From an uncultured bacterium (GTDB lineage Bacteria > Verrucomicrobiota > Lentisphaeria > Victivallales > Victivallaceae): a stretch of 47,458 nucleotides of DNA. Positions 17,624-40,879 of this stretch are shown in pieces. Every line of letters begins with the position of its first letter. The first letter of the stretch is position 1. Position numbers and translations under genes: made by a program. Location of the stretch: NCBI GenBank assembly GCA_902783135.1, contig CACZPY010000336.1, forward strand, positions 1 to 47,458, read 5' to 3'. Below the pieces are notes generated by a model. That model saw only the letters and a program-made list of their open reading frames with translations, did not search any database and was not told the origin of the DNA.

Positions 17624-17624
17624 T

Positions 17625-18677: not shown

Positions 18678-18706
18678 CGTTCAGTGTTTCCGTCGGCTGT
18701 CGACGC

Positions 18707-20992: not shown

Positions 20993-21031
20993 CAATATCC
21001 TCCTTGATTTATTTTGATCCAAAAACGGCGA

Positions 21032-22706: not shown

Positions 22707-22783
22707 TTGACATACCCTCGAATATTTTTCGTTTTGTCCGATGGTTTAATATAGCCGCACATAAAAAACTTGGCAAACATCTT

Positions 22784-22797
22784 CCGCTTCGAAGCGG
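22784..22797. repeat. Perfect 14-bp palindrome CCGCTTCGAAGCGG immediately after the amidohydrolase stop
   Basis: Read directly from the sequence. It lies 1 nt downstream of the stop at 22799-22801 on the minus strand. A T6 run follows only after ~15 nt, so it is not a canonical terminator. Confidence 0.3.
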
Positions 22798-22798
22798 T

Positions 22799-23617: not shown

Positions 23618-24372
23618 AATTGCACCTCGTCAAGCAGTTTTTCCAAGTTCTTTCCGGCGATGAGCGCCACTTCGTCCGCGGCGAGTCCGCTCTGCTTGAG
23701 CTGGAGCATGCCCGATCCCTGATTGTAGAGCGGGTAGCCGCTGCCGTAGAGCAGCCGTTCCGCGCCGTAAAGTTCCGCAAGGTCGCGCAGCCCCTCCGGG
23801 ACCATATAACCGCCGATGGAAAAGAAGAGGTTTTCGAAGTTTTCGAGCAAGGGACGCAACTGCCGGTCGCGCCCCCATTTTCCCCAGCGCTCGTAGAGCA
23901 CGATCCGGTTGCGCGGAAACTCGCGCACGAAGTTGTAGGCATTGCTCCAGTCGTTTCCCCGCGCCCGGAACAGCACCGGGATATTCCGCTCGCGGGCGGC
24001 ATCCATGATCCGCCCGATGGAGAGGCGGCAGGGCACGAACAGATGGTCGTCGGGCATCAGCGTCAGCGCGCGGATGTTGCCGCGCTTCATCGCCGCGAAA
24101 AACTCGTCGCCCTGCGGCAGCTCCGGACACTGATCGGGCAGGATGCACCAGACGCCGCAGAGCCGGTCGGTCGCGGCTTCGCCGAGCATAGTTGAGAGCT
24201 CACGATTCGCCGCCTCCGCGCCGAGAAGTCCGCAGTTCCCGTGACGCACCAGCGCCCGGTCGACACCGAAGCGGTCCATGTCCGCGAGCAGTTCCGGCGC
24301 CCCCGGAAGGATGCCGATCGCCGGACCGCTGCCGATCTGACAATCCGCATCGAAGAAAAACAGTTCTTTCAT
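23614..24372 (-). CDS. Amidohydrolase-family protein (divergent)
   Basis: The track ORF 23614..25008 is trimmed to ATG 24372 (MKELFFFDADCQIG), giving 252 aa. ..LLYGSGYPL.. parallels LLYGTDLPW of the neighbour. The upstream 212 codons overlap the next gene in another frame. Confidence 0.7.
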   Translation of the reverse strand: MKELFFFDADCQIGSGPAIGILPGAPELLADMDRFGVDRALVRHGNCGLLGAEAANRELSTMLGEAATDRLCGVWCILPDQCPELPQGDEFFAAMKRGNIRALTLMPDDHLFVPCRLSIGRIMDAARERNIPVLFRARGNDWSNAYNFVREFPRNRIVLYERWGKWGRDRQLRPLLENFENLFFSIGGYMVPEGLRDLAELYGAERLLYGSGYPLYNQGSGMLQLKQSGLAADEVALIAGKNLEKLLDEVQL

Positions 24373-24404
24373 GAAAATATCTTCCCCCGAAATTTGGTTT
24401 TGGT

Positions 24405-25217
24405 TCAAATATCGCGGACGGCGTCGATCCGGCGACACCGTTCGGAGATGGTCATGTCCCCGGTGCCCGACTCGTCCTGCAAACTCTGCAGCCGCGGCGC
24501 GGTGCGGAGGAGCGGCAGCAGTTTTTTCCAGTCGATATTGCCGTCGCCGGGGAGCCGATGCGCATCTTCGCTTCCGTCGTTGTCGTGCAGATGGCAGACG
24601 ACGATGTACGGCAGCAGCGCCTCCAGATAGCGGTAAAAACTGAACCGGTTGCGCTTGGCGACGATATTCAGATGCCCCACATCCAGACAGAACCCCACGT
24701 TCTCTCCGGCATAGCGGCGCATGTACCGCAGCATCGCCTCGGGGTTGTCGACGACGCTGAAACCGTTTTCGAGCGCGATCACCATGCCGGTCGGCGCAGC
24801 GGCGGCGAGCAGCACTTCCAACTCCCTGCCCGTCCGTTCCAGCGCCTCGTCGAAGAGACCTTCGTAGCAACCTATCCACGTCATCATGTGCATGACGTAG
24901 TGGCGGATGCCGAAGATTTCCGGCAGAAGCCGGATGAGTCTGGTGTGAACATAACGCTTCACCTCCGCCGTTCCCGGCTCGTCGGCGAGCAGATCCCACA
25001 TCCCCCACGGAGCGTGGACCCCGGTGAAGACGACTCCGGATCTGTCGGCGATTTTTCTGATCCCGGCGGCGAATCCGGGTTCCAGCGCCATGCGGAGGGC
25101 CATGTTCTCGCCGATCACAAGCTCACGGTGACCGCATTCGGCAAAGGCGCGCATGTCATCCCCCCACGAATACTGCGCGGTGCGGTCCCAATTCCAAAAA
25201 TGGGCTATTTCAAGCAT
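24405..25217 (-). CDS. Xylose-isomerase-like TIM-barrel protein, paralog of 21894..22706
   Basis: MLEIAHFWNWDR.. parallels MIEIAHFWDWNR... ..VIALENG.., ..GFCLDVGHLN.. and ..VCHLHDNDGSEDAHRLPGDG.. are present. ATG 25217 was chosen by paralog alignment; ATG 25229 is also possible. Confidence 0.8.
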   Translation of the reverse strand: MLEIAHFWNWDRTAQYSWGDDMRAFAECGHRELVIGENMALRMALEPGFAAGIRKIADRSGVVFTGVHAPWGMWDLLADEPGTAEVKRYVHTRLIRLLPEIFGIRHYVMHMMTWIGCYEGLFDEALERTGRELEVLLAAAAPTGMVIALENGFSVVDNPEAMLRYMRRYAGENVGFCLDVGHLNIVAKRNRFSFYRYLEALLPYIVVCHLHDNDGSEDAHRLPGDGNIDWKKLLPLLRTAPRLQSLQDESGTGDMTISERCRRIDAVRDI

Positions 25218-25253
25218 TTTCGACTCCATCGGACCCGATATTGTTCTGCATAT

Positions 25254-25485: not shown

Positions 25486-26712
25486 ATGAAAAAACGCAGA
25501 GCAGCCGTCACCGGGATCGGTGTCGTTTCGCCGCTGGGGAACTCCGCGGAGGAGTTGTACCGGGGGCTGATGGAGAACCGCTCCGGCATCCGCGCCATGA
25601 CCGAATGGCGCGACGAATTCGGCCGCAACATCGCCGGAGCGCCGGTGGTGCTGGATCCGGTGGAGGTCAAAAAGATCAGCCGCAAGGTCCGCCGCACGAT
25701 GGGCAACGCCGCGTTGTTTGCCGGACTTGCCGCTCAGGAGGCGGTGGCGCAGAGCGGGCTCGACCCGGCGCTTTTCACGTCGGGCCGGGTGGGATGCGTG
25801 ATCGGTTCCACGGTCGGCAGCGCCTCCAGCATGACCGAAGCCTGCGTCGCCGACTACGAGGGTCGCCGCAACGACCTGTCGGCATGTCATTTCTTCCGGC
25901 TGATGTCGCACTCGTCGAGTTTCAACGTCGCCGACATGTTCGGGATCAACGGCCCGCAGCTTTCGACCAACTCGGCGTGCGCCTCGGGGCTGCAGGCGCT
26001 GGGCACGGCGTTGGAGCTGATCCAGCTCGGCAAGGTCGACGCGGTGCTGGCGGGCGGTTCGGACGAATCCACTCCGCTCGTGGCGGCGTCGTTCCAACTG
26101 CTGTACGCTCTGGCGGAGGAGGAATCTCCGGAGCCGGACAAACTGTCGCGCCCCTTCGACGCGGGACGCACCGGGCTGGTGTGCGGCGAAGGCGCGGGCA
26201 TCCTCGTCGTCGAGGAACTGGAACACGCGAAGCGGCGCGGGGCGCCGGTCCTCTTCGAGATCGCCGGATACGCGACCAACTGTTCGGGTTGGCACGTCAG
26301 CCACTCGGACGAACTGCAGATCGCCAACTGCATGAAGACCGCGCTCGCCGACGCCGGGATCGCTCCCGGCGAGGTGGATTACGTCAGTGCCCACGCCACC
26401 GGCACCAAGGTCGGTGACGCCGCGGAGGCGGCGGCGATCCGCGCGGTGCTCGGCGGCGACACGCCGGTATCGAGCCTCAAGGGGCACATCGGGCATACGC
26501 TCGGCGCCTCGGGAGCACTGGAACTGGCGGCGGTGGCGGGGATGATGCGCGACGGCGTAGTGCTGCCGACGCGCAACTTGGAAAATGTGGAAGACTGCGC
26601 GGGCATTCTGCTGCCGCGCGAGGTGCAGGAGCGCAAGCTCCGCGTCTGCATAAAAAACAGCATCGCTTTCGGCGGGGTCAACACCTCGCTGGTGTGCCGC
26701 AGTCTCGACTGA
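25486..26712 (+). CDS. Beta-ketoacyl-ACP synthase (KAS I/II-type, active-site complete)
   Basis: 408 aa with Cys in ..TNSACASG.. and His in ..SAHATGT.. and ..GHIGHTLGASG... Confidence 0.9.
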   Translation: MKKRRAAVTGIGVVSPLGNSAEELYRGLMENRSGIRAMTEWRDEFGRNIAGAPVVLDPVEVKKISRKVRRTMGNAALFAGLAAQEAVAQSGLDPALFTSGRVGCVIGSTVGSASSMTEACVADYEGRRNDLSACHFFRLMSHSSSFNVADMFGINGPQLSTNSACASGLQALGTALELIQLGKVDAVLAGGSDESTPLVAASFQLLYALAEEESPEPDKLSRPFDAGRTGLVCGEGAGILVVEELEHAKRRGAPVLFEIAGYATNCSGWHVSHSDELQIANCMKTALADAGIAPGEVDYVSAHATGTKVGDAAEAAAIRAVLGGDTPVSSLKGHIGHTLGASGALELAAVAGMMRDGVVLPTRNLENVEDCAGILLPREVQERKLRVCIKNSIAFGGVNTSLVCRSLD

Positions 26713-26773: not shown

Positions 26774-27049
26774 ATGGATCGCGAAGAGATAATCAAGGCG
26801 GTGAACTCGATCTTCATCGAGCGCTTCGAACTGGAGGAATCGGCACTCTCTCCCGAAAAGAACATCATCGAAGATCTGCAGCTGGACAGCCTCGATCTGG
26901 TCGACATGATCGTCGGGCTGCAGCAGAAATTCGGGATCCAGCTCCGCGACAATCCGGAGATCCGCAACGTCCGCACTCTCGGCGACGTCTACGACCTCTT
27001 CGAGAAGCTGGCGAAGGAGCACCCGGAGATCGCGGAAAAACTCAAGTAG
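26774..27049 (+). CDS. Acyl carrier protein
   Basis: 91 aa from ATG 26774, preceded by AAAAGGAG. It has the phosphopantetheine-site motif DLQLDSLDLVDM. Confidence 0.85.
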   Translation: MDREEIIKAVNSIFIERFELEESALSPEKNIIEDLQLDSLDLVDMIVGLQQKFGIQLRDNPEIRNVRTLGDVYDLFEKLAKEHPEIAEKLK

Positions 27050-27069: not shown

Positions 27070-27825
27070 ATGATCCTGCTGCGGAGCACAGCCGTATATT
27101 TGGCGACCCTTCTATGGGCGCTGATATTCTGGGTGGCGGTGCTGCTGCCGGTGTTGGCGGTATCGGTTCTGCCCGCCGGGAAGCGGCGGCACTGCATGCG
27201 GGTGATGTTGCTGTGGTTCGGTCTGTCGACCGTGCGCTTCGCCTGGCGGCCGTTCTTCCGGATCCGCTTCGAGGATCGCGCCGGACGCGTCCGCAAACCG
27301 GGGATCGTGATCGCGAATCACCGTTCGGCGATCGACGGTTTTCTGGTGTCGCTGCCCAAACTAAGCATGGCGCAGACGGTCAACGACTGGCCGCTGCGGC
27401 TGCCGATCATCGGGCACGTCGCCCGGGCGGCGGGATATCTGAACATCACCAACTGGGATTACGATACGCTGCGTTTGCGGGCGGCGGAGGTCCTGGCGTC
27501 CGGGGACCCGATCGTATCGTACCCGGAGGGGACCCGCTCAGAGAGCCGCACGATGGGACCTTTCCGCAGCGGGATATTCCATGTGGCGTTGGAGTTGAAA
27601 GTGCCGATTTATATGTTGTGCATCGCAGGCAACGAATACATGCCGGACCGGAAGTTCCGCTTCCGGGAATTCCGCGATCTGGCGGTACGTTTTCTGGGAC
27701 CGCTGCCGGAGGAGGAGATACGGGAGTGCACCACGGCATATGCGTTAAAGATGAAGGTCTTCCGCCGGATGACCGAAGAACTGGCGTCGCTGGACGCGGA
27801 GCTGGATCATGAAAAAGCACTTTGA
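27070..27825 (+). CDS. PlsC-family (lysophospholipid / 1-acylglycerol-3-phosphate) acyltransferase, membrane-anchored
   Basis: N-terminal hydrophobic helix, HX4D box NHRSAIDG and the PEGTRS motif. Confidence 0.85.
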   Translation: MILLRSTAVYLATLLWALIFWVAVLLPVLAVSVLPAGKRRHCMRVMLLWFGLSTVRFAWRPFFRIRFEDRAGRVRKPGIVIANHRSAIDGFLVSLPKLSMAQTVNDWPLRLPIIGHVARAAGYLNITNWDYDTLRLRAAEVLASGDPIVSYPEGTRSESRTMGPFRSGIFHVALELKVPIYMLCIAGNEYMPDRKFRFREFRDLAVRFLGPLPEEEIRECTTAYALKMKVFRRMTEELASLDAELDHEKAL

Positions 27826-29098
27826 GTTGTCGGAGGATCGTTCTTTCGCCTCGCGCGAAGAAGTGAGAAGCCTGCAGGATCGTCTGCTCGCCGAACAGAT
27901 ACGCTATTGCCGGACCGAGTCGCCGTTCTACCGCGGCAGACTTGCCGGCTTCCCGGACCGGGAGTACGACTTCGATTCCCTCCGGGAACTGCCGACGACC
28001 TCGAAACAGGATCTGGCTGAACATAACGAAGAGTTTTTCGCCGTCCCCGTGACCGGGATCGCCGACATCTGCTTCACGAGCGGCACCACCGGTACGCCCT
28101 GCCGGATCGTCTACACGGCGGCCGACCTCGACCGCCTCGCCTACAACGATGCCTGCGGCTACCGCGCGGCGGGGATGCTCCCCGGCGAAAAGGTGCTTTT
28201 GACCTGTACCATCGACCGCTGCTTCATCGCGGGGCTGGCGTACTATCAGGGCGTGGTCAAACTCGGCGCGGCGGCGATCCGGAACGGGCTGAACACGCTC
28301 GACAGCCACGCCGAAGTGATCCGAACGCTCCGCCCGGAAAACATCGTCGGCGTCCCGAGTTTTCTCGCCAAACTGGGGCAGTATCTCGCCGATAACGGGA
28401 TCGACGGCAGCTGCGTCAGGCGCCTCGTCTGCATCGGGGAGCCCGCCCGCAACCGCAATATGGAGCCGACGCCGCTCGGAGCGAAGCTCGACGGATTTTG
28501 GCCGGGCGCGGTGCATTCGACTTACGCCTCCAGCGAGATCGTCACGAGTTTCACCGAATGTTCCGCCCGGTGCGGCGGTCATCCGCCCGCCGATCTGGCG
28601 GTGGTCGAGATCCTCGACGACGCGGGCAACCGCGTACCCGACGGCGAAGTCGGGGAAGTCACCGTGACGCCGCTGCAGGTGACGGGGATGCCGCTCGTGC
28701 GCTTCCGCACCGGCGACGTGAGTTTCATCATTCCGGAGCCGTGTCCCTGCGGCCGCGGCACGCTGCGGCTGGGACCGATCCTCGGGCGCAAGGCGCAGAT
28801 GCTCAAGGTGCGCGGCACGACGTTGTTCCCGAATGCATTTTTCAACGTTCTCGACGGCATCCCCGGCGTGGTCGAATATTACATGGAGGTCCGCGGCACC
28901 GCGCTCTCGGACGAGATCACGATCTGCGTCGCCTGCCGCGACGGCGCGTCTCCGGAAGATCTGGGCGTTCAAGAAAAATTGTACGGCCGCACCCGGATCC
29001 ACGTGCCGGTGGTCGCCGTCGACCCGGCGGCGGCGCGGCAAAAAGTTTTCGGCGTTTCGCGCAAACCGGTGCGCTTCTTTGATTTGAGGAAGTATTGA
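27809..29098 (+). CDS. PaaK-family adenylate-forming enzyme (coenzyme F390 synthetase-like; ApeH-position starter-activating ligase)
   Basis: 429 aa with the motif FTSGTTGTPCRIV. It overlaps the acyltransferase by 17 nt. Confidence 0.8.
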   Translation: MKKHFELSEDRSFASREEVRSLQDRLLAEQIRYCRTESPFYRGRLAGFPDREYDFDSLRELPTTSKQDLAEHNEEFFAVPVTGIADICFTSGTTGTPCRIVYTAADLDRLAYNDACGYRAAGMLPGEKVLLTCTIDRCFIAGLAYYQGVVKLGAAAIRNGLNTLDSHAEVIRTLRPENIVGVPSFLAKLGQYLADNGIDGSCVRRLVCIGEPARNRNMEPTPLGAKLDGFWPGAVHSTYASSEIVTSFTECSARCGGHPPADLAVVEILDDAGNRVPDGEVGEVTVTPLQVTGMPLVRFRTGDVSFIIPEPCPCGRGTLRLGPILGRKAQMLKVRGTTLFPNAFFNVLDGIPGVVEYYMEVRGTALSDEITICVACRDGASPEDLGVQEKLYGRTRIHVPVVAVDPAAARQKVFGVSRKPVRFFDLRKY

Positions 29099-29100: not shown

Positions 29101-30546
29101 ATGACCGTCTTCGATGTTCATAAGTTCGACTACACCCCGGAGGAGGCGCTCGACACGGCGAAGCAGGGGAAACTGCTCTCCGCCGAGATCGAGTTCAACC
29201 GCAGCTGCAACTACCGCTGTCCGTACTGCTACGCGGTGAACGACCCCGCCGCCGTGCTGCCGCACGAAACGGCGCTGCAGGTGATCCGCGACGTGGCGAA
29301 ACTCGGAGCGCGCAAGATCGTGGTGCTCGGCGGCGAACCATTGCTCTGCCGGAATCTTCGGGAATACATACTGCTCGCGGAATCGCTCGGCATGGGGACG
29401 GAGATATTCACCAACGCCGCGCTGATCGACGAATCTTGGGCGCGTTTCTTCTGCGAACACGAGTGCCGGGTGGCGGTCAAACTCAATTCGCTGGATCCGG
29501 AAATACAGGAGAAACTGACCGGGGTGCCGGGCGCGTTGGACAGCGCCCTGCGGGCGATCCGGCTGCTTCAGGACGCCGGCATGGACGAACGGCGCCTCGC
29601 GGCGAGTTCGGTGATCTGCTCGGCAAACGAACACGAGGCGGTCGCGCTGTGGAAGTATCTGCGGGACCACCGCATAAAACCCTATCTCGAGATCATGACC
29701 CCGCAGGGGCGGCTGCTGGAAAACCGCGATCTGGAGGTGCATCCGCACCGCCTGAAGGAGATCTTCGACGAGATCGCCGCCTTCGACCGTTCGCGGGGCT
29801 TCGAATGGGAGCCGCAGCCGCCGCTGGTGGGGGCGAAGTGCCTGCGTCACCAGTTCTCGTGCGTGGTCAGCGCCAACGGCGACGTGATCCCGTGCGTGGG
29901 GCTGACGGTGAAACTCGGCAACGTGTTGGAACAGCCGCTGCCGGACATTCTTTTCAACAGCAACATCATGCGGCGGCTCAAGGATTTCCGCAACACGATC
30001 AAGGGGCCGTGCCGCAGTTGCGACATGGCGGAAAACTGCTACGGCTGCCGGGGGGCGGCATACCAGCTTACGGGGGACTATCTGGCGAGCGATCCGCTCT
30101 GCTGGCGGAACTGCGACGAACTGTTGTTCAAGCCGCCGCTCATCCCCTGCGACGCGCCGCAATTCCTGCCCCACCGGCCGCCGATGACTATGGTCACCCG
30201 GCTGCTGGAGCTCGGCGAATGGTCCACCATCGAGGCGGTGATAACCCCGGACAACCGTTTTCTGCGCGACGGCGTGTTCGATCCCGAAGCGCTGCCCGAG
30301 ATCGTCGCGCAGTCCTGCGCCGCGGTCACCGGCTTCGAGCAGGCGGACCGGAACATCAAAGGGATGCTGACCGGATTGCGGAACTTCGAAGCGCTTTCTC
30401 CGGTGTACGGCGGCGACATTCTGCACGTGGTGGTGCGCGAGACCGCGGAACTGGACGATTATCACATCGCCGAGTTCCAGATCCGCCGCGCCGGAAACGG
30501 CGAACTGTGCGCGCGGGGAGAAATGTCGATATGCCGCATCCCCTGA
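29101..30546 (+). CDS. Radical SAM / SPASM-domain enzyme fused to a C-terminal COG4706-type hotdog (3-hydroxyacyl-ACP dehydratase-like) domain
   Basis: CX3CX2C at CNYRCPYC (29206-29229). A Cys-rich auxiliary-cluster region follows: C..C..GDVIPC then CRSCDMAENCYGC (30010-30048). The tail from about 30157 (LPHRPPMTMVTRLLE ... GMLTGLRNFEALSPVYGGDILH ...) resembles ApeI-type hotdog dehydratases. The start is ATG 29101; TTG 29095 would overlap the upstream stop. Confidence 0.85.
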   Translation: MTVFDVHKFDYTPEEALDTAKQGKLLSAEIEFNRSCNYRCPYCYAVNDPAAVLPHETALQVIRDVAKLGARKIVVLGGEPLLCRNLREYILLAESLGMGTEIFTNAALIDESWARFFCEHECRVAVKLNSLDPEIQEKLTGVPGALDSALRAIRLLQDAGMDERRLAASSVICSANEHEAVALWKYLRDHRIKPYLEIMTPQGRLLENRDLEVHPHRLKEIFDEIAAFDRSRGFEWEPQPPLVGAKCLRHQFSCVVSANGDVIPCVGLTVKLGNVLEQPLPDILFNSNIMRRLKDFRNTIKGPCRSCDMAENCYGCRGAAYQLTGDYLASDPLCWRNCDELLFKPPLIPCDAPQFLPHRPPMTMVTRLLELGEWSTIEAVITPDNRFLRDGVFDPEALPEIVAQSCAAVTGFEQADRNIKGMLTGLRNFEALSPVYGGDILHVVVRETAELDDYHIAEFQIRRAGNGELCARGEMSICRIP

Positions 30547-31139
30547 CACTGATATTGTGCCTGTCGGCGCTGACCGTTGCCGCGGCGGGACCGGATACCG
30601 CCGCCGGAATGCTGAAAATCGCGAAGCCCCGGGTGGTCGCCGCCGATTTCGTGCAGACACGCCGCCTCGCCGATCTCGACATGGAGGTGCGGATCACCGG
30701 CAGCATGGTCAGCGAACTGGACGGCAGACTGCGCTGGCAGGTCGATTCTCCCGTGCGGAGCGTGACCGTGATCGACCGGGAAAAACTCACCCATTACGAC
30801 GGCGAAACGAAACAATTGGCGGTGATCCGTCAGGATGGATTCCCGTGGCTAAAGGTCCTGCGCGATTCGCTGGACGACTGGCTCTCGGGCGACCGGGAGC
30901 GTCTCGCCGCGCGCTTCGATCTGACCGTGCCGAAACCGCGGGTCCTCCATTTGGAACCGCGCGACGCGACACAGCGAAAACTCTACAGAAGCGTCGAGAT
31001 CGAGCTTGCCGAAGATTCCCGTTCCATCGCCGCCATCCGGATCGAAGAGGGCGCCGGCGACCGCCTGGAGATCCGTTTCGCGCATATCCGCCACGATCCA
31101 CAGCTGCCGCCGGATATCTGGCGGATGCCGCCGCGATGA
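30531..31139 (+). CDS. LolA-like periplasmic lipid/lipoprotein carrier (ApeL position), signal peptide
   Basis: 202 aa read from the tail of track ORF 29436..31139. It starts at ATG 30531 with the signal peptide MPHPLTLILCLSALTVAAAG. The call rests on size, secretion signal and position in front of the MMPL exporter. Direct motif evidence is weak. Confidence 0.55.
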   Translation: MPHPLTLILCLSALTVAAAGPDTAAGMLKIAKPRVVAADFVQTRRLADLDMEVRITGSMVSELDGRLRWQVDSPVRSVTVIDREKLTHYDGETKQLAVIRQDGFPWLKVLRDSLDDWLSGDRERLAARFDLTVPKPRVLHLEPRDATQRKLYRSVEIELAEDSRSIAAIRIEEGAGDRLEIRFAHIRHDPQLPPDIWRMPPR

Positions 31140-34099
31140 AGTCGCGTACCGAACAGCTGATCCGCGCCTGCGGACGACACCGCGCGGCGATACTTGCGGC
31201 GTTGGCGGCGCTGGGAGCGCTGGCGATACTCGCCACGGTGTTTTTCGGACACTTCACCAACGATATGAGCCGCCTCTTCCCCAACACGCGGGAGACGCGG
31301 GCGCTCTTCCGGATACTGCATGACGCGCACCTGGCCGACACGGTGCAGCTGGAGTTCGTCGGCACCGGCGACATCACGCTCCACCGCGCCTATCTCGAGA
31401 GCACGGCGGAAAAACTCGCCCGATCGCCGCTGCTCCGGCAGGTCACCTTCCGTTACCGCTCCGACGATCCCGCCGCCGAACTCGCGTCGTTCGCCGCGCT
31501 CGCGCCGCGTTTTCTCCCCCCGGAGGTGCTGAACGGCAGTTACCCGGAGAACGCCGCCGTGAACGCCCTCCGGCAGCTCGCCTTTCCGGTACCGGGACAA
31601 GCCCGCCGACTGCGGATGCAGCCCTTCGGCTGGGAAAAGACGCTGCTGAGCAAACTTCAAAAATTGGACGCGGCGACCGGAATGGACCTCGCGCCGGAGT
31701 TGCCGTTCTTCGTGAGCGCCGACCGCCGCCGCGCGATGATCGCAGCCGAAACGGAGGTCCGCATCGGCGACGCCGACGCGGTGCGTGAACTCTTCGCGGA
31801 ACTGAGGCGCTGCGCCGCTCCCCTGCCCTCCGGCGTCGAGCTGCGGATCATCTCGGGATGCTCCCACACCCTCGGCAACGAGGAGGTGCTCAAACGCGAC
31901 GCCGCCATCGCGGGCGCGGTGTCGCTGGCGCTGTTTCTCGGGCTGTTCCTGTGGGCGTACCGCGGCGACAGGCGGGCGCTGTGGATACCGTTGCTGCCGC
32001 TCTACTCCTCGCTGCTGGCGCTCGGGATCATGGTGCTGTGCTTCCGCGAGATCTGTCTCTACGTGATCGGGCTCGGCGGATGCATCACCGGGCTGGCGGT
32101 GGATCAGGGGATACACGTCTACGCCGCCTTCCGGGGCGAAAACGCCGAACGCCGGACCGCCGCGCTCACGCTGCCGATGCTGCTGTCGGCGGCGACGAGC
32201 ATCGCGGTCTTCGCCTTCCTCGGGCTGACGGGGATAAGCGCCTATCTGCAACTGGCGGTTTTCGCGGGGCTGTCGCTCGCCTTCAGCGCGCTGCTGGCGC
32301 TGTTGGTGCTGCCGATGCTGCTGGATCGCGGCCGCGAACTCCGCCGGATCTTCCCCGAACTGCCGCCGCGTCCGGGCAGCCGTTGGGCGGCGGCGGCAGT
32401 CGTCATCGGCGCGGCGCTGCTGATCGCCGCGCTGCCCGGAGTATTCGGTAACGCCGACTTCGCGCTGGATTCGCTGGATGGTACGCCGGAAAGGATCCGC
32501 GCCGAAGAAGCGGATTTCCGCCGCGCGTGGCACCGCAAAGGGACCGCTCGGGAGACGGCGGTCCTCGCCGCCGCCGGGAGCGACCGCGAGGCGGCGCTCG
32601 AACACCTTTCCGCCATCTGCGCCGAACTCGAACGAACCGGGATCGATGCGGCGGTCCCGCCGCGTCCCCCGCTTTGCGTTCAGGCGGAAAACCGCCGCGC
32701 GTGGCGCACGCCGGAGGTCGCCGCCAAGATCGCCCGCCTCGCGGAGGAGTGCCGCGCCGCCTGCGCCAAACACCGCCTGCCGCAGGAGTTCTTCCAACCG
32801 TTCTTTTCCGCGCTGACGCGGGCGATCGCCGCGGACGACTTCCGACTGCCGCCGATTCTCGAACACATCGACCGCAAGATGATAAAATCCCACGGGAAAA
32901 GCGCCGCCGCCGTCGCGCTGCTGCGCGATACGCCGGAAAACGTGCGCGCGGTGCGCCAAGTGCTGAAGGCGCGGAACGACGAACACGCGGCGCTGCTTTC
33001 CAAAGGCGGATTCCGGGCGCTGCTCCGCGAAGAATCGGGCGGGCGCTTTCTGTGGCTGCTCGCGTTGAGCGTCGCCGCCGCGCTGCTGCTCGTCTACATG
33101 GTGTTCCGCAACTTTGCCGACATGCTCTTGGCGATGGTGCCGGTGCTGCTCGCGTGGTCGGCGGTGGCGCTGCTCGTGCGGCTGACGGGCTTCCGGGCGA
33201 CTCCGGCGGCAGCGTTCGCGGCGGTGCTGCTGACCGGACTGGCGGTGGACTACGGGATCTACGCGGTCTGCCAGCTGCGCCGTCCGGACGAACTCGACAC
33301 GCACGATCCGATCCTGCTGTCGGCGGCGACGACGATCGCAGGTGCGGCGGCGCTGCTGGCGTCGCGCCATCCGGCGCTCTTCGGCACGGGAGCGGTACTG
33401 GCGCCGGGGATCTTCGTCGCCTGCCTGAGCGGAGTGTACATCGTGCCGCGCCTCGGCAAAGTCTCCTTGGGCAAAGTGCCGACCGCACTGTGGGCGATAA
33501 TGCTGCTGTTCCTCGCCGGATGCGCACACACCGTGCCGTGGCAGGAGTTCCCCGAACGCGAAGCGCAGGAGCGGCGGATGCAACTCTATCCCGGATCCGC
33601 TTTCCGGCTTCAGGCGACGACGACGGCGGAGTTCCGCGGACGGCAGTTCCGCTTCGTGCTGGCGGCGGAGATCGATCCGGAAACGGACAAGGTCAAACTG
33701 GCGGGGGTCGATCCCGGCTCCGGCGCGCTGTTGTTCCGCAGCGACGAAGCTGCCGGCGGAGCGCCCCGCCCCGGTCCCGCGCTCGCGGCGGACCCGCCGG
33801 AAGCGCTGCTGAAGTTCATTTCGGGTCTTCCCGACGATCTGCGGAGGATTTTTACCGCTAAAAACGCTCCGCCGCTTGCCGCGGAGGAGAAAACGGAGTA
33901 TATTGCCGTATATTCAAACGCGCCGGTGGAGTGGCGCCTCCGCCGCGACGGCTCGGCGGAAAAACGCGGCGGCGGGATATTCGCCGGAACGTGGCGGGCG
34001 GAATACCGCGACACGGGGCGACATGTGGTTTACCGCCGGAACGCGGTGGGATACGATTACACATTGGTTTTGACAATAAACAATTTGCGGCGTAAGTGA
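31136..34099 (+). CDS. MMPL/RND-superfamily exporter (ApeM-like) reading in frame into a C-terminal lipobox-containing ~190-aa domain
   Basis: ATG 31136 (MKSRTEQLIR) overlaps the upstream stop as ATGA. There are two bundles of ~6 TM helices (..AIAGAVSLALFLGLFLWAY.. and ..FLWLLALSVAAALLLVYMVF..), each preceded by a soluble loop. No stop codon occurs before 34099. Confidence 0.75.
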   Translation: MKSRTEQLIRACGRHRAAILAALAALGALAILATVFFGHFTNDMSRLFPNTRETRALFRILHDAHLADTVQLEFVGTGDITLHRAYLESTAEKLARSPLLRQVTFRYRSDDPAAELASFAALAPRFLPPEVLNGSYPENAAVNALRQLAFPVPGQARRLRMQPFGWEKTLLSKLQKLDAATGMDLAPELPFFVSADRRRAMIAAETEVRIGDADAVRELFAELRRCAAPLPSGVELRIISGCSHTLGNEEVLKRDAAIAGAVSLALFLGLFLWAYRGDRRALWIPLLPLYSSLLALGIMVLCFREICLYVIGLGGCITGLAVDQGIHVYAAFRGENAERRTAALTLPMLLSAATSIAVFAFLGLTGISAYLQLAVFAGLSLAFSALLALLVLPMLLDRGRELRRIFPELPPRPGSRWAAAAVVIGAALLIAALPGVFGNADFALDSLDGTPERIRAEEADFRRAWHRKGTARETAVLAAAGSDREAALEHLSAICAELERTGIDAAVPPRPPLCVQAENRRAWRTPEVAAKIARLAEECRAACAKHRLPQEFFQPFFSALTRAIAADDFRLPPILEHIDRKMIKSHGKSAAAVALLRDTPENVRAVRQVLKARNDEHAALLSKGGFRALLREESGGRFLWLLALSVAAALLLVYMVFRNFADMLLAMVPVLLAWSAVALLVRLTGFRATPAAAFAAVLLTGLAVDYGIYAVCQLRRPDELDTHDPILLSAATTIAGAAALLASRHPALFGTGAVLAPGIFVACLSGVYIVPRLGKVSLGKVPTALWAIMLLFLAGCAHTVPWQEFPEREAQERRMQLYPGSAFRLQATTTAEFRGRQFRFVLAAEIDPETDKVKLAGVDPGSGALLFRSDEAAGGAPRPGPALAADPPEALLKFISGLPDDLRRIFTAKNAPPLAAEEKTEYIAVYSNAPVEWRLRRDGSAEKRGGGIFAGTWRAEYRDTGRHVVYRRNAVGYDYTLVLTINNLRRK
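33443..34099 (+). other. Possible nested in-frame lipoprotein gene (ApeN/DUF3261 position) within the exporter ORF
   Basis: An in-frame GTG at 33443 would give M-PRLGKVSLGKVPTALWAIMLLFLAG-C: a positively charged n-region, an h-region and the lipobox LAGC. The Cys codon is at 33521-33523. The mature domain would be 192 aa. Confidence 0.4.
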
Positions 34100-34101
34100 T
34101 C

Positions 34102-34488
34102 ATGAGCGGCAATGATTCGGTGATCGGCGCGGAACTGCGTTCGCGCGTGAAGGATCTGCGGCAGACGGCGGAAAAGGAATACAGTTGCTCCATGGGTTTC
34201 GATCCGGGATTTCGGGGCTTCGAAGGGCATTTCGAGGGCAATCCGATCGTCCCCGGAGTCTGTCTGATCGAGACGGCGCGCGTCGTCGCCGAAACGGTAT
34301 TGGGCAGAAGTCTCGCCACGCGCCGCGTGCCGCAATGCCGTTTCCGCCGTCCGATCTTTGCGGAAGATCGCGCCGAGGTCAAACTGAAACTCGAAGCGGT
34401 GGAACCGGGTACGTGGAAACTCAATGCCGACATCCGTGTCGGCGGCGTCATCTGCGCACAGCTGCGCTCGAACGCGGAGGAGTTATGA
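34102..34488 (+). CDS. FabZ/FabA-like hotdog 3-hydroxyacyl-ACP dehydratase (ApeP position)
   Basis: Carries the motif FEGHFEGNPIVPGVCLIE. ATG 34102 was chosen; the in-frame GTG 34096 overlaps the upstream stop. Confidence 0.8.
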   Translation: MSGNDSVIGAELRSRVKDLRQTAEKEYSCSMGFDPGFRGFEGHFEGNPIVPGVCLIETARVVAETVLGRSLATRRVPQCRFRRPIFAEDRAEVKLKLEAVEPGTWKLNADIRVGGVICAQLRSNAEEL

Positions 34489-34958
34489 GAAGGCGTAAAA
34501 GTTACTTCGCCACGGAGCCGGAAGCCCCCGCGCCGCTGAAAATCACCATCCGCCGCCGCACCGCCTTCAGCGAAGTCGACGCGATGGCGGTCGCCTGGCA
34601 CGGCAACTATCTGCGCTTCTTCGAGGCGGCGCACTCCGAACTGATGCAGAAGATCGGTCTCGGCTTCGCCGAATACGCGAAGTACGATCTCGCCGCGCCG
34701 GTCGTCCAGAGCCATGTGGACTACTATTCGCCGCTGTTCTTGGACGAGGAGTTCACCGTGTGTGCCGAACTTTACTGGAACGACGGCGCCCGGCTCGACA
34801 CCGCGTACACCGTCCGGGGCAACGACGGCAGGCTCTGCGCCACCGGCTACACCGTCCAGATGTTCTGCGGTCTCCGCACCCGGGAGGCGTACATCTTCCC
34901 GCCGGAGCCGGTCGCCGCGATGCGCGAAAAGTGGCGCAACGGAGAACTGCATGGCTGA
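34485..34958 (+). CDS. 4HBT/YbgC-type acyl-(ACP/CoA) thioesterase (ApeK position)
   Basis: 157 aa from the tail of track ORF 34185..34958. ..FSEVDAMAVAWHGNYLRFFEAA.. is a typical 4HBT N-terminal motif. ATGA overlap with the dehydratase. Confidence 0.8.
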   Translation: MRRRKSYFATEPEAPAPLKITIRRRTAFSEVDAMAVAWHGNYLRFFEAAHSELMQKIGLGFAEYAKYDLAAPVVQSHVDYYSPLFLDEEFTVCAELYWNDGARLDTAYTVRGNDGRLCATGYTVQMFCGLRTREAYIFPPEPVAAMREKWRNGELHG

Positions 34959-36006
34959 AGCACCGGTATTCATCCTCGGAACGGCGGCGGCAACGCCCTT
35001 CGGCGGCACGGTGCGCGAAAACTGCGACGCGCTCTTCGCCGGACGCACCGCCTTTGCCCCGCCGCGCCACTTCGACGGCAGGGGACGGCGGCTCGGGATC
35101 GATCCGGAGTTGGACGGCGGCGACGGTTCCCGCGCCGAAAGGCTGCTGTGCAAACTCCGCGACTCCATCGACTTCGCGATCCCGCCGGGGACGAGGCTCT
35201 TCGTCGCGACGACCGTCGGAGCCATCGACCTTCTGGAGCGCGGCGCGGAGATCGACACCGCACGGGAGTTCCTGCTCATGGCGGAGCGGATATTCGGGAT
35301 ATCCGGCGGCACCTTGGTATCCGCCGCCTGCGCTTCGGGTCAGACGGCGGCGGCGCTGGCGATGCGCGAACTGCGATGCGGAACTTGCCGCCATGCGCTG
35401 GTCGTCGGCGGCGATATCGCGAGCGAATTCGTGACGACCGGATTCGCCGCGCTCGGCGCATTGTCGCGCACGGTCTGCCGCCCCTATGACGCGGAGCGCG
35501 ACGGGCTGACCCTCGGCGAGAGCGTCGCCGCGCTGCTGTTGGGCGGCGACGATCCGGGGATGGGAAAAATCACCGGCGCGGCGGAAAATTGCGATGCCGC
35601 GCACATCACTTCGCCCGACCTTTCCGGCAGAATGCTCGCCGCCGCCTGCCGCGCGGCGATGGGAGAAAACCCGCCCGACGCGGTGATCGGTCACGGCACC
35701 GGCACCGTCTACAACGATCAGGCGGAGATCGCCGCCCTCGGAGCGCTCTTTGACGGACACACTCCGCCCCTGTTCTCGCTCAAGGGGAACTGCGGCCACA
35801 CCCTCGGAGCGACCGGGGTACTGCAGATCGCCCTCGGTCTGGAATTCGCGCGGCGGCGGATGCTGCCGCCGCAGGCGGGACTGCGCACTCCGATGCCGGG
35901 AGCGAACGTCGCAACGACGGCGCGCCGGACCGGCGGCGCGCGGATATTGTCGCTCAACGTCGGTTTCGGCGGCATCAACAGCGCCGTGGCACTGGAGGCG
36001 CTATGA
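34951..36006 (+). CDS. Short beta-ketoacyl synthase (ApeO-like), active-site complete
   Basis: 351 aa from ATG 34951, with motifs ..VSAACASG.., ..IGHGTGT.. and ..GNCGHTLGATG... Confidence 0.85.
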   Translation: MAEAPVFILGTAAATPFGGTVRENCDALFAGRTAFAPPRHFDGRGRRLGIDPELDGGDGSRAERLLCKLRDSIDFAIPPGTRLFVATTVGAIDLLERGAEIDTAREFLLMAERIFGISGGTLVSAACASGQTAAALAMRELRCGTCRHALVVGGDIASEFVTTGFAALGALSRTVCRPYDAERDGLTLGESVAALLLGGDDPGMGKITGAAENCDAAHITSPDLSGRMLAAACRAAMGENPPDAVIGHGTGTVYNDQAEIAALGALFDGHTPPLFSLKGNCGHTLGATGVLQIALGLEFARRRMLPPQAGLRTPMPGANVATTARRTGGARILSLNVGFGGINSAVALEAL

Positions 36007-36605
36007 AGATCGCGGGCGCGGCACTTATGACCGGAACTTCGGAGTTCCGCACGTTGCACCGGCGCGGGCGCTTCGGCGCCTTCGCCGACCTCAACGCGGC
36101 GCGGCTGGCGCTGACGCGCCGCCCCGACATGCCCCATTGCGACCTCAACGACTTCGGGCGCGGCGGAGCGACCGTGCGCCGGGTGACGCTCACGGCGCTG
36201 CTGACCGCGTGGGACGCGGGCGGCGGACAACTCGCCGACGCCGGAGTCGTCGGCTGGAACGGAGACGGATGCACGGCGGAAAATCTGAACTACTGGAACG
36301 ACTACCTCGAATGCGGGCGCGAAGCGGGACGGGGCGGATTGTTCGTGGCGACCTTGCCGACGATCCCCTACTGCGAAGCCGCGATCGCCCTCGGCTGCCG
36401 GGGCGGCGTCGCCTATTTCCGCACCGCGCCCTCGACGGGGCGGTTGTGGGAGCTCCTCGCGGCGGCTCCGGCGGGGCGTTATCTCTGCGGCGAAGTCACC
36501 GGGGACAGCGTCTGCATGATGCTGACGGACACCCGGCTGCCCGGTGCCCCCCTGCACGATCGACCCCGCTTGAACGCGGTCTTTGCCGCGCTGGAGGAAC
36601 GATGA
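36003..36605 (+). CDS. KS-related protein lacking the catalytic Cys (chain-length-factor-like, ApeC position)
   Basis: 200 aa, coupled by ATGA to the preceding KS. It has a thiolase-like N-terminal pattern (MKIAGAALMTG.., ..LFVATLPTIPYCEAAIALGCRGGVAYF..) but no C-H-H triad. Confidence 0.55.
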   Translation: MKIAGAALMTGTSEFRTLHRRGRFGAFADLNAARLALTRRPDMPHCDLNDFGRGGATVRRVTLTALLTAWDAGGGQLADAGVVGWNGDGCTAENLNYWNDYLECGREAGRGGLFVATLPTIPYCEAAIALGCRGGVAYFRTAPSTGRLWELLAAAPAGRYLCGEVTGDSVCMMLTDTRLPGAPLHDRPRLNAVFAALEER

Positions 36606-38697: not shown

Positions 38698-38967
38698 ATG
38701 AACGAAGATGTGAGCGCTTTCCGCAGGGAACTCAAGGAAAACCTCGTCGACTGGCTGCAGCTGATGGACAAGACCGCCGACGACGTCAAGGACGAAGAAC
38801 CGCTCTTCAAGGAGGGGTTGGGGCTGGACTCGTTGGACGCGGTCGAGATCGTGATCATGATGCAGCGCAAGTACGGTATCCCGCAGTCCGCGGTGGAGAA
38901 CCGGCGCGAGATCTTCGCGACCTTCGCCACGCTCGCGGACTTCATCATGGCCAACCGCACCAAATGA
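38698..38967 (+). CDS. Acyl carrier protein (second ACP)
   Basis: 89 aa with the motif GLGLDSLDAVEIV. AAAAGGGA lies upstream of the ATG. Confidence 0.85.
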   Translation: MNEDVSAFRRELKENLVDWLQLMDKTADDVKDEEPLFKEGLGLDSLDAVEIVIMMQRKYGIPQSAVENRREIFATFATLADFIMANRTK

Positions 38968-38977
38968 GGTCTTGACC

Positions 38978-40879
38978 ATGTCACGCGCCGGAATCAGCGG
39001 AATGGGCGTCGTCTCGGCGCTCGGCGACGGGACGACAGTCACCCGGAGCGCCCTGTACGCCCCGGCGACGCCGACGCCCCGGGTGCCGGGCCGCTTCGAA
39101 ACGAAACTGGATCTGCCGGTCTTCGAGATCCCGGAACCCGACGTCGCGGCGGAAGCGGGCACCGGTCTGCCGGTGCGGTTCCTGCTGCACGCCCTCGACG
39201 AGGCGCTGACGAATGCGAAGATCTCACGCGATGAACTGCGCGCGCGGCGCGTCGGAATCGCCGTCGGCACCACCGTGGCGTGCCAGTTGGACAACATCCC
39301 CTGCTACGACCGCATCCGCAAGGGCGATCTGAGCGACCTTTCCCCCTCGCTGCCCTATGTGACGCGGATGCCCGCCGAGTATCTGCGGCGGCTTCTCGGC
39401 ACGACCGGACCGGCGGTCACGGTCTCCAACGCCTGCGCCTCCGGTGCGGACGCGCTGATGATCGCGCTGGAGTGGCTGCGCACCGGACGCTGCGACCTCG
39501 TGATCGCGGGCGGCTGCGACTCGGTGAGCAAAGTCGCCTTCAACGGCTTCAACGCGCTGCGCGTCTGCTCCGGCGCGCCCTGCCGCCCCTTCGACGCGGA
39601 GCGTTCGGGGCTGAACCTCGGCGACGCCGCCGGAGTACTGATCCTCGAAGCGCCGGAGCACGCCGCCGCGCGCGGCGTCAAAGCGGAATACGAACTCGGC
39701 GGCGCGGGCAAGACCGCCGACGGTTTCCACATCACCCAGCCGGAAAGTTCCGGAAAGGAACTGGAGCGGGCGATACGCCTCGCCCTCGAACAGGCGGAAC
39801 TGACGCCAAACGATATCGAATTCGTGAACGCCCACGGCACGGGAACACCGGTCAACGACCGCGTCGAAGGCGCGGTGCTGGCACGGGTATTCGGCGGCAA
39901 GGTGCGCTACCAGTCGACCAAGGCGCTCACCGGGCACACCCTCGGTGCGGCGGGGGCGATCGAAGCGATATTCTCGTGCCTCATGCTCGCAGAGCGCCGC
40001 GCCGCCGCCGGACGCCGCTGCGAACACCCCGATCCGGAAGTGCCGGTGCCGCCGCTTCCGGAAAGCGTGTCCGTAACCGGGAATGCCGCCGTTTCGACCT
40101 CGCTCGCCTTCGGCGGCTCGAACACCGCGCTCGCGCTCCGCAAATGCCGACCTGAGGTTCCGGATATCGGGATCGGAAAATCGTATATCGCCGGATTCGC
40201 ATTCCTCACGCCCCATGTCCCGGATAAGGAGGAACTCGTCGCGCTCTGCCGCAAGTACGCGCTGCGCCGTCCCGACCGGCTGACCCAACTGGCGCTGGCG
40301 GCGGCGGAACGGCTCGCCCCCCTCCCCGGCGGAGCCGATACCGCACTCATCACGGTCACCGGTTACGGTCCCGCCTCGACCACCTGCCGGGTGATCGACG
40401 ACATATTGGACTATCCCGAGGAGGAGATACTGCCGACGGGTTTTTCGCACTCGGTGATCAACGCGGCGGCATCCTATATCAGCGCGGCGCACCACATCCA
40501 CGGACCGACCTTCGCGCTGGTCGGGTTCGACGACCCCTTCCGCGAAGCGGCGGATCTGGCGCAGGTGCTGCTCTCGGAAGAAGTCTGCCGACGGGTGCTG
40601 ATCGTCGCCGCCGACGAGGGAAGTCCGATCTCGCGCGCGGTGGAAACGCTGCGCCGCGACGGGATCCCCGCCGCCGCCGAAGGGGCTTGCGCGCTGCTGC
40701 TCGCCGCCGATCCGGCGGAAAACCGCCTGGGCACGCTGGAGATCGCGGCGGAAACAGGAAACGACGACCGGTGTCTGCCCTGCGGCATCCCGAAGTCGCT
40801 GATCGCGCAACTCGGTTCCGCCGACTCCGGCTCCCGCACGATACTCGCAGGAGTGAAGCCGCCGTCGTGGAGGTCGTAA
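38978..40879 (+). CDS. Beta-ketoacyl synthase fused to a C-terminal KS-like, Cys-less (CLF-like) domain
   Basis: The KS part has ..VSNACASG.., ..NAHGTGT.. and ..TGHTLGAAG.. and ends near ..AFGGSNTALALRK (about 40150). A ~230-aa second domain follows (..ILPTGFSHSVINAAASYISAAHHIHGPTFAL..VLIVAADEG..) without a catalytic triad. ATG 38978 was chosen; TTG 38972 heads the track ORF. Confidence 0.8.
   Translation: MSRAGISGMGVVSALGDGTTVTRSALYAPATPTPRVPGRFETKLDLPVFEIPEPDVAAEAGTGLPVRFLLHALDEALTNAKISRDELRARRVGIAVGTTVACQLDNIPCYDRIRKGDLSDLSPSLPYVTRMPAEYLRRLLGTTGPAVTVSNACASGADALMIALEWLRTGRCDLVIAGGCDSVSKVAFNGFNALRVCSGAPCRPFDAERSGLNLGDAAGVLILEAPEHAAARGVKAEYELGGAGKTADGFHITQPESSGKELERAIRLALEQAELTPNDIEFVNAHGTGTPVNDRVEGAVLARVFGGKVRYQSTKALTGHTLGAAGAIEAIFSCLMLAERRAAAGRRCEHPDPEVPVPPLPESVSVTGNAAVSTSLAFGGSNTALALRKCRPEVPDIGIGKSYIAGFAFLTPHVPDKEELVALCRKYALRRPDRLTQLALAAAERLAPLPGGADTALITVTGYGPASTTCRVIDDILDYPEEEILPTGFSHSVINAAASYISAAHHIHGPTFALVGFDDPFREAADLAQVLLSEEVCRRVLIVAADEGSPISRAVETLRRDGIPAAAEGACALLLAADPAENRLGTLEIAAETGNDDRCLPCGIPKSLIAQLGSADSGSRTILAGVKPPSWRS

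Follow-up and report, generated by a model that had tools for sequence, protein, structure and literature searches.

The fusion gene and its domains

The window analysed here is a stretch of 47,458 nucleotides (contig CACZPY010000336.1 of assembly GCA_902783135.1) from an uncultured bacterium of the Victivallaceae, and the gene in question lies at 29101..30546 on its + strand. It encodes a protein of 481 aa in which a radical S-adenosylmethionine (SAM) core is followed by a SPASM domain, a short conserved linker and a domain predicted to be an ApeP-type hotdog protomer. The open reading frame (ORF) runs without interruption from an ATG at 29101 (with an alternative TTG at 29095) to 30546. The ATG is placed 2 nt past the stop codon of a ligase gene, with GAGGAAG about 10 nt upstream, and the 3′ end of the fusion gene overlaps the start of a LolA-like gene at 30531.

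The original prediction had described a single ORF with a CX3CX2C motif, a SPASM cysteine array and a C-terminal hotdog domain, and all the motifs it quoted were found. The CX3CX2C motif (29206..29229, + strand; CNYRCPYC, residues 36–43) is predicted from the sequence to ligate the SAM-cleaving [4Fe-4S] cluster through C36, C40 and C43, and the GGEP motif at residues 77–80 was invariant in both family alignments (A1 and A2). The SPASM domain (29839..30102, + strand) contains seven conserved cysteines (C247, C265, C304, C307, C313, C316 and C334), the surrounding sequence reading C247..GDVIPC265, C304RSC307DMAENC313YGC316 and C334. Their spacing (C247-X12-G260-X4-C265; C304-X2-C307-X5-C313-X2-C316; C334) fits the SPASM array, the last spacing being CX2C instead of the CX3C of the consensus CX9-15GX4C...CX2CX5CX3C...C. 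The Pfam models Radical_SAM (PF04055) and SPASM (PF13186) matched the protein with 70.6 and 39.9 bits, above their cut-offs of 29.5 and 21.5, respectively. Judged by these features, residues 1–335 are an intact SPASM-class radical SAM enzyme with one SAM cluster and two putative auxiliary [4Fe-4S] clusters in the SPASM domain. The linker (30103..30153, + strand) carries an invariant P349 and was modelled with a predicted local distance difference test score (pLDDT) of about 91. The hotdog protomer (30154..30543, + strand) possesses the LPH motif, within LPHRPPMTMV at residues 356–365, as well as E400 and Q404, and is devoid of the GHF histidine.

The best NCBIfam matches of the fusion protein were AhbD (122 bits), a GeoRSP radical SAM protein (119 bits) and NirJ2 (106 bits), for which the curated cut-offs are 400–500 bits; PqqE was another of the nearest families and likewise scored far under its cut-off. 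Scoring 122 and 106 bits where 500 are required, the protein is not a member of the AhbD or NirJ families (TIGR04545 and TIGR04055). A Foldseek search returned SuiB, PqqE, CteB and anSME as top matches, with a probability of 1.00 and E values of 1e-14 to 1e-13; the query-normalised template modelling (TM) scores were 0.46–0.54 and the identities to solved SPASM enzymes 16–20%. With just ~30 residues in front of CX3CX2C, the protein has no room for a recognition element (RRE) of the kind found in maturases of ribosomally synthesised and post-translationally modified peptides (RiPPs). The gene is flanked by the ligase and LolA genes with no adjacent precursor peptide, and no haem/tetrapyrrole or peptide genes were found in the operon of the window, which contains lipid genes only. 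The identity of the protein as AhbD/NirJ or a RiPP maturase was ruled out by these scores together with the lipid-gene context. Characterised SPASM enzymes are mostly net oxidants that use their auxiliary clusters.

Occurrence and age of the fusion

A protein search revealed more than 100 protein clusters of about 480 aa, 44–80% identical to the window protein and with the same three-domain architecture, named in databases, where a name was given at all, only as 'radical SAM protein'. A relative is encoded in at least 492 species genomes in a scan using one genome per species; the loci and alignments described below rest on the best 80 of these matches, and together with the window they yielded 81 extracted ORFs. 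The best 80 matches span about 10 phyla and are 39–80% identical, nearly all over residues ~6–477. Their hosts are Lentisphaerota/Victivallales, including the cultured Victivallis vadensis DSM 14823, Nitrospirota/Thermodesulfovibrionia, Geobacteraceae, Pelobacter, Desulfobacteraceae, Omnitrophota, Verrucomicrobiota, Deferribacteres and genomes labelled as Brocadiaceae or Brocadiia. The nearest relatives (~80% identity) come from metagenome-assembled genomes of goat-rumen Lentisphaeria, so that a member of the Lentisphaeria living in a gut or rumen is the probable source of the window.

Full-length fusions made up 78 of the 81 extracted ORFs. The cysteines of CX3CX2C were kept in 79 of 81 aligned rows, the remaining two rows being extraction fragments of 2–3 residues, and all seven SPASM cysteines were kept in every complete member, with C254 present in 93%. 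An AlphaFold2 model of the fusion, built on a 40-sequence alignment, reached a mean pLDDT of 91.5 and a predicted TM score (pTM) of 0.90. Residues 331–360, which form the junction, had a pLDDT of about 91, and residues 365–479 adopted a classic hotdog fold with six strands and a central helix. A frameshift or missed stop at the junction, which the original prediction had named as one possible refutation, was ruled out by the ORF being continuous across species and by this model. One 346-aa copy (locus L059, 10001-11023, on a Victivallales contig) ends just past the SPASM domain, with no operon genes nearby, and represents either a true unfused paralogue or a problem of the assembly.

At E<=1e-30, 879 representatives were recovered by an exhaustive profile search, comprising both fused (~480–500 aa) and unfused (~340–370 aa) proteins. 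In a rough neighbour-joining tree of complete radical SAM cores, the fused proteins were placed together with a few unfused ones nested among them, including Kuste3343 from Kuenenia stuttgartiensis, an anammox bacterium, and a large unfused family surrounded the fused group. Because the fused proteins group in this way, the tree suggests a single old fusion event that has since been retained. A literature search found no paper mentioning the hotdog fusion or giving it a function. The fusion is widespread, annotated merely as 'radical SAM protein' and without a characterised member, while being a variant that joins known kinds of proteins.

The fused domain is an ApeP-type protomer and its presumed partner is of the ApeI type

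The second hotdog of the cluster, a stand-alone ApeI-type protomer (FEGHFEGNPIVPGV), is encoded at 34096..34488 on the + strand and is the presumed histidine donor and heterodimer partner of the fusion. The original prediction had taken the fused domain for the ApeI-type and the stand-alone protein for its FabZ-like counterpart. Profile hidden Markov models (HMMs) of the fused domain and of the partner were built from the 80 loci and compared with ApeI and ApeP references translated from the E. coli CFT073 ape cluster. The fused-domain HMM matched E. coli ApeP (61.9 bits, E 3e-17) and gave no match to ApeI, whereas the partner HMM matched ApeI (55.5 bits) and gave no match to ApeP; the two labels were swapped. 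The presence of a second hotdog near 34100 was correctly foreseen, with the difference that this expected partner is the ApeI-type half. Likewise, the position behind the ligase was rightly noted and is the one that ApeI takes in E. coli; the domain occupying it here is, however, the other protomer.

The motifs are distributed in the same manner. E. coli ApeI carries '...FNGHF..PLLPGV...', the FabZ-type catalytic histidine motif, and E. coli ApeP carries 'YLPHDAPM...' and 'ELMAQ' and is without GHF. The fused hotdog likewise has LPHRPPM (residues 356–362) and 'PEIVAQ' (E400 and Q404) and no GHF, with 'rdgvf' standing opposite 'GHFp' in an alignment with FabZ. The LPH motif, regarded earlier as the hallmark of COG4706 dehydratases, does not contain the catalytic histidine and occurs in E. 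coli ApeP as LPHDAPM. The sole Pfam match of residues 352–475 was the ApeP-like PF22817, with 17.7 bits for the whole protein; no match to the ApeI-like PF22818 was obtained for the fused domain. The assignment of the C-terminal part to the hotdog models held only in part, as PF22817 remained under its cut-off of 27 while the family HMM matched E. coli ApeP. PF22817 is among the precomputed Pfam domains of nearly all family members. The 34096–34488 protein passed the PF22818 cut-off (29.2 versus 28.5 bits) and carries FEGHF. The family profile also matched PDB 6qsr_B (E 3.6e-9) and the partner matched 6qsr_A; 6QSR is presumably the ApeI:P complex of X. doucetiae. An ApeI-type identity of the fused domain was ruled out by the missing PF22818 match, the absence of GHF and the reciprocal HMM results, and on its sequence the fused hotdog is an ApeP-type protomer.

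In E. coli FabZ, catalysis depends on His54 in GHFP and Glu68 in LEAMAQ. In the 78 fused proteins, E400, Q404, G421, G473 and P349 were 100% conserved, and H358 of LPH was found in 86%, with Gln in the others; there was no other conserved histidine. The 57 partner proteins showed 100% conservation of F42, G44, H45 and F46, and at the position of the FabZ glutamate they had Gln in 67% and Glu in 12% of loci, the window copy having Glu. ApeI and ApeP form a heterodimer with a single active site (PMC8041823), and one composite His/Glu site of this kind predicts the complementary conservation of E400 and GHF that was seen.

The ApeI-type gene co-occurred in 57 loci by tblastn, or in 60 loci and the window by the family HMM, and was found in nearly every locus reaching beyond the MMPL gene. 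With the family HMMs, each locus showed a single ApeP-type ORF, namely the fusion, with no more than one ORF of the ApeI type, and no further Ape- or FabZ-type (dehydratase-type) hotdog was found in the locus. Because of these numbers, the fusion and the 34096 protein would be the only 3-hydroxyacyl-ACP (acyl carrier protein) dehydratase of the cluster, with one composite His/Glu site. In a Nitrospirota locus with a rearranged operon order (L068), a second ApeP-type hotdog was observed at 5201-6124, where it occupies residues 21–156 of a 308-aa ORF with an extra C-terminal part.

Organisation and kinship of the gene cluster

The fusion gene stands in a run of + strand lipid genes. Upstream of it lie a ketosynthase 38% identical to E. 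coli ApeR (25486..26712), acyl carrier protein 1 (26774..27049), a PlsC-type acyltransferase 29% identical to ApeD (27070..27825) and, directly adjacent and tightly coupled, a PaaK/FlxY-like adenylating ligase (27809..29098). Downstream follow a LolA-like periplasmic lipid carrier (30531..31139) resembling ApeL and LolA2_flexi, an RND/MMPL-like membrane protein (31136..34099), the ApeI-type partner, an ApeK-like 4HBT hotdog thioesterase (34485..34958) and a region at 34951..36605 encoding a ketosynthase (34951-36006) and then a protein resembling a chain-length factor (CLF; 36003-36605). Next come an ApeJ-like GT2-DUF2062 glycosyltransferase (36602-37768), a lipid-A-type acyltransferase (37765-38694), acyl carrier protein 2 (38698..38967) and a ketosynthase fused to a CLF-like Ketoacyl-synt_2 domain (38972..40879). 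An esterase gene starts at 41231, and the + strand genes for a FabF-type ketosynthase (42214-43464), a FabG/ApeQ-like ketoreductase (43461-44195) and a phytoene-desaturase-like flavoprotein (44192-45676) come last. The 38972-40879 protein (635 aa) combines a complete ketosynthase with the C-terminal CLF-like domain and is present besides the separate ketosynthase and CLF-like proteins of 34951-36605.

The RND/MMPL-like protein (31136-34099) has 987 aa, with weak similarity to HpnN/HAE3 and an in-frame lipoprotein-like C-terminal part, and it gave no match to Pfam. About 790 residues into the protein (lipobox-like motif at ~33503), an in-frame stretch resembling a lipoprotein signal, KVPTALWAIMLLFLAGC, precedes a tail of about 190 residues of soluble appearance. 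The arrangement resembles an ApeN/DUF3261-like lipoprotein that has been fused to the transporter or starts internally within it; the homologues in L002 and L003 are comparably long (995–1150 aa).

A gene-order table compiled with tblastn showed that the operon is constant across about 10 phyla, in the order ketoreductase, phytoene-desaturase-like protein, ketosynthase, ACP, acyltransferase, ligase, fusion, LolA, MMPL, ApeI, thioesterase, ketosynthase, CLF, B12a, B12 radical SAM enzyme and GT2, with acyltransferase, ACP and ketosynthase fusion as a further group. Two B12-binding-domain genes, one of them encoding the B12 radical SAM enzyme, are located between the CLF-like and GT2-DUF2062 genes of this canonical operon. 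The pair was seen at L002 17556-20158, L003 18951-20354 and most of L012-L086, and was absent from the window (junction 36605-36602) and its nearest relatives L008-L011 and L025. The ketoreductase, phytoene-desaturase-like and FabF genes, which lie upstream in the canonical operon, are located downstream in the window (42214-45676).

An Ape-like setting had been proposed for the gene, and the complete Ape/flexirubin gene set was present in the window: starter ligase, ketosynthase and CLF, ketoreductase, split hotdog dehydratase, thioesterase, GT2-DUF2062, acyltransferases, LolA-like protein and MMPL. Many proteins of the window cluster shared 27–45% identity with E. coli ApeR, Q, J, K, L, D, E, F and I, and the ligase, MMPL and ApeP parts were too diverged for tblastn against E. 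coli. FlxY is the 4-coumarate-CoA ligase of the flexirubin cluster of Bacteroidetes (PMC3992019); the window ligase matched the NCBI FlxY model over its full length with 391.8 bits, under the cut-off of 520, and the LolA protein matched LolA2_flexi, under the cut-off of 125. No dialkylresorcinol or tyrosine ammonia-lyase genes were found in the window, and the literature search brought up no paper that connects a radical SAM enzyme with flexirubin clusters. On these likenesses, the window cluster is placed as a distant relative of the aryl-polyene and flexirubin clusters.

Two other regions of the window drew attention. Just upstream of the lipid cluster, two - strand paralogues of about 270 aa (21894-22706 and 24405-25229, within 21894-25229) share an N-terminal IAHFWDW or IAHFWNW and further motifs, and flank an amidohydrolase-like gene. 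The segment 14001-16636 has a GC content of 0.48 versus ~0.62 elsewhere in the window and covers a family-2 glycosyltransferase gene (14151-15176, -) and a Polysacc_synt_3 flippase-like gene (15173-16636, -); it looks like a horizontally acquired surface-polysaccharide segment.

Unfused homologues and the Kuenenia cluster

A cluster at kuste3335-3352 of Kuenenia stuttgartiensis, with syntenic clusters in Desulfotalea, Geobacter and Pelobacter, was described by Rattray et al. (2009, PMC2649909); clusters of this type encode 'SAM radical' enzymes, a protein resembling phenylacetyl-CoA ligase, a glycosyltransferase, a phytoene dehydrogenase and a novel membrane protein (PMC2649909). Already before 2009, Kuste3343 counted among the ladderane candidates (PMC2649909, PMC4790861). 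Its sequence, taken from S6 Table of Javidpour et al. (2016), was 37% identical to window residues 6–335 (E 7e-85). It ends seven residues past the final SPASM Cys-Trp, at the place where the hotdog begins in the window protein, and has no hotdog domain, and its gene adjoins the ligase-like kuste3344. The window cluster is related to kuste3335-3352, long discussed for ladderanes. A characterised function did not turn up for the fusion, but its enzyme family was already known through the unfused Kuste3343 (PMC2649909, PMC4790861). In a homology search with the Brocadiia-labelled L079, the matches bore merely the generic name 'radical SAM protein', and Kuenenia was not among them. Clusters given the label 'ladderane' by antiSMASH are reported from Desulfobacterota, Verrucomicrobiota, Omnitrophota and others, without an assigned function (PMC9902471).

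Two further unfused homologues were inspected with their surroundings. The P0254 gene (L090) directly follows an AMP-binding ligase gene, and its other neighbours (8692-21059) are genes for a KS-III, a B12 radical SAM enzyme, a GT2-DUF2062 protein, a deacetylase-methyltransferase, an ACP and an ABC transporter as well as KS/CLF (ketosynthase/CLF) genes, a content resembling that of kuste3347/3351 in Kuenenia. In the surroundings of P0259 (L088/L089, 10001-21077) are genes for an ATP-grasp enzyme, ABC2 permeases, a PP-binding protein of 314 aa and a PaaK-like ligase, together with another three radical SAM genes. The direct adjacency of ligase and radical SAM genes is common to the fused members, Kuste3343 and P0254.

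Because unfused relatives occur near a ligase and a carrier protein without an Ape hotdog, the evolutionarily conserved module consists of the ligase, the carrier protein and the SPASM radical SAM enzyme, with a B12 radical SAM gene often present as well. Fusion to the hotdog is an addition specific to the Ape/flexirubin-like operon. As the unfused relatives adjoin similar ligases and carrier proteins, the radical step probably takes place on a carrier-bound substrate.

Proposed role of the fusion and alternative explanations

In the proposed scheme, an aryl-polyene/flexirubin-like type II fatty-acid/polyketide pathway would build an acyl lipid and send it to the outer membrane, with the chain starting from an acid loaded by the adjacent FlxY-like ligase. 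The C-terminal ApeP-type hotdog is predicted to provide the catalytic glutamate E400, and the ApeI-type protein encoded at 34096 the catalytic histidine of GHF. The radical SAM domain would abstract a hydrogen from the carrier-protein-bound chain and the electron would leave through the auxiliary clusters, the outcome being a net two-electron oxidation, either C–C bond formation with ring closure or a desaturation. Besides completing the dehydratase, the fused hotdog would dock the acyl-ACP beside the radical site. This coupled reading, with a two-function subunit whose radical SAM part acts on the same ACP-bound chain that the dehydratase handles, is given an even chance. It is favoured by the junction being modelled as rigid (pTM 0.90); the coupling of the radical step to dehydration is inferred. 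Tethering of radical chemistry to the dehydration step by the fusion is only plausible, because the unfused relatives stand beside similar ligases and carriers and have no Ape hotdog within 10 kb. A more specific form of the coupling, iterative radical cyclisation during chain growth, in which the SPASM enzyme would form C–C bonds on an enoyl- or hydroxyacyl-ACP sitting in the dehydratase, is considered unlikely.

Several points weigh against a coupled function. The PF22817 score of the hotdog (17.7 bits for the whole protein, 21.0 bits for the isolated domain) is under the cut-off of 27. Neither an ApeP- nor an ApeI-type hotdog was found within 10 kb of the unfused homologues at L088-L090, and the close unfused homologues Kuste3343, P0259 and P0254 show that the radical chemistry needs no Ape dehydratase. 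Fusion of a hotdog protomer to a neighbouring enzyme has a precedent without known mechanistic meaning in ApeH-ApeI of A. baumannii (PMC8041823). Furthermore, neither Kuste3342 nor Kuste3343 could be detected on expression in E. coli, and the expression yielded no new lipids (Javidpour et al. 2016, PMC4790861), and clusters of this type are without any known product.

A first alternative is that the protein is a Rosetta-stone fusion without channelling. The hotdog would then be the ApeP half of the dehydratase and the radical SAM part an independent enzyme, most likely tailoring the starter acid on its carrier after the ligase, so that the fusion fixes only stoichiometry or assembly. The ligase–radical SAM adjacency kept in the fused members, Kuste3343 (PMC4790861) and P0254 of L090, the unfused relatives without a nearby Ape hotdog and the fusion of an Ape protomer to the next gene in A. 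baumannii (PMC8041823) all speak for it. Such an uncoupled protein would, however, hardly be expected to keep a rigid linker with an invariant P349 in 78 of 81 ORFs across ~10 phyla at ~40% identity, to have both parts packed confidently by AlphaFold2 (pTM 0.90) and to descend from one old, kept fusion as the neighbour-joining tree suggests; the explanation is regarded as a real but lesser possibility. It is doubtful that the hotdog serves as a non-catalytic acyl-ACP recognition module, comparable to the RRE of peptide-modifying SPASM enzymes, with dehydration carried out elsewhere: the domain does lack the FabZ catalytic histidine and its Pfam score is below threshold, but E400 and Q404 of the FabZ/ApeP catalytic helix motif are invariant, no other dehydratase-type hotdog was found in the locus, and the partner retains its His with mostly Gln at the Glu position, so that each protomer needs the other.

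A cofactor or peptide maturase merely neighbouring the lipid genes, performing AhbD/NirJ-like haem chemistry or RiPP maturation, would account for the best NCBIfam matches (AhbD 122, GeoRSP 119 and NirJ2 106 bits) and for peptide-modifying SPASM enzymes being the top structural matches. It was judged very improbable against scores far under the 400–500-bit cut-offs, the ~30 residues before CX3CX2C with no RRE, an operon with no haem or peptide genes and the synteny with lipid genes across phyla. An assembly or frameshift artefact joining two genes could be suspected because the architecture is rare in the literature and because of the truncated 346-aa copy of L059 outside the operon, and yet it has practically no standing, being already refuted by the continuous ORF across species. 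The coupled function is retained as the preferred reading.

A SPASM radical SAM enzyme joined to the sole predicted dehydratase of a lipid pathway of the fatty-acid/polyketide type, as kept in several hundred species or more, is direct evidence at the genome level that radical SAM chemistry has been built into a type II fatty-acid/polyketide machine, and it bears on the ladderane-cluster question. Radical reactions on lipids bound to acyl carriers, so far unexplored, are thereby indicated to be widespread in anaerobes. If the iterative cyclisation were true, an unrecognised class of cyclised polyene lipids would be present in the outer membranes of many anaerobes and the anammox homologue Kuste3343 would gain a testable role. 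Progress on this cluster type has been stalled since 2009 because anammox bacteria lack genetics, and the cultured Victivallis vadensis DSM 14823 and the potentially tractable Geobacteraceae relatives, which carry the operon, offer entry points. For annotation, the fused domain should be named ApeP-type and the 34096 protein ApeI-type, and the fusion merits a more specific name than 'radical SAM protein'.

Comparison with known systems

The window enzyme has the seven-cysteine auxiliary-cluster array in common with SuiB, PqqE, CteB, anSME and AhbD/NirJ, none of which has a hotdog domain or a lipid-cluster setting, and unlike the peptide-modifying SPASM enzymes it is without a peptide-recognition domain. 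Jaw5, the jawsamycin cyclopropanase, is HemN-like, not a SPASM enzyme and not known to be fused to a dehydratase, and Tes and Gms act on finished isoprenoid lipids. The family profile showed weak sequence similarity to GDGT-MAS (7tol, E 2e-4). Tes, Grs and Gms are lipid-modifying radical SAM enzymes reviewed together with Jaw5 (PMC13459092). The shared concept is a radical SAM enzyme working on a thioester-bound enoyl intermediate in iterative chain growth in the case of Jaw5, and SPASM enzymes forming C–C bonds in lipid tails in the case of Tes and Gms (PMC13459092). The likeness to Jaw5, Tes, Grs and Gms is an analogy and not a membership.

The closest parallel of the split dehydratase is ApeI:ApeP of E. 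coli CFT073 (c1196/c1188), in which the motifs are divided alike, with LPH..PM and E..AQ in one protomer and GHF in the other, and the pairwise similarity of the fused hotdog to E. coli ApeP is too low for tblastn. The E. coli ape cluster is without a radical SAM gene, whereas in the window the ApeP half is the C-terminal domain of a 481-aa protein; it is also without the phytoene-desaturase-like gene and the two B12-domain genes of the canonical operon. ApeH-ApeI of A. baumannii (PMC8041823) likewise carries an Ape protomer C-terminally on the enzyme encoded upstream, and the gene adjoins the ligase or coincides with it, but there ApeI is fused to the adenylating ligase, whereas in the window ApeP is fused to the radical SAM enzyme.

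The flexirubin cluster of Bacteroidetes shares the likeness of the ligase and LolA proteins with the window. The Kuenenia cluster, similarly to the window, contains paralogues of FabF along with ACPs, FabG and FabZ, a phytoene-desaturase-like gene, a glycosyltransferase gene and an unknown membrane protein, in a gene order unlike that of the window. The 'type c' scheme proposed for ladderanes (PMC10139942) is essentially the same as the iterative radical cyclisation considered above, which here would be hard-wired by the fusion.

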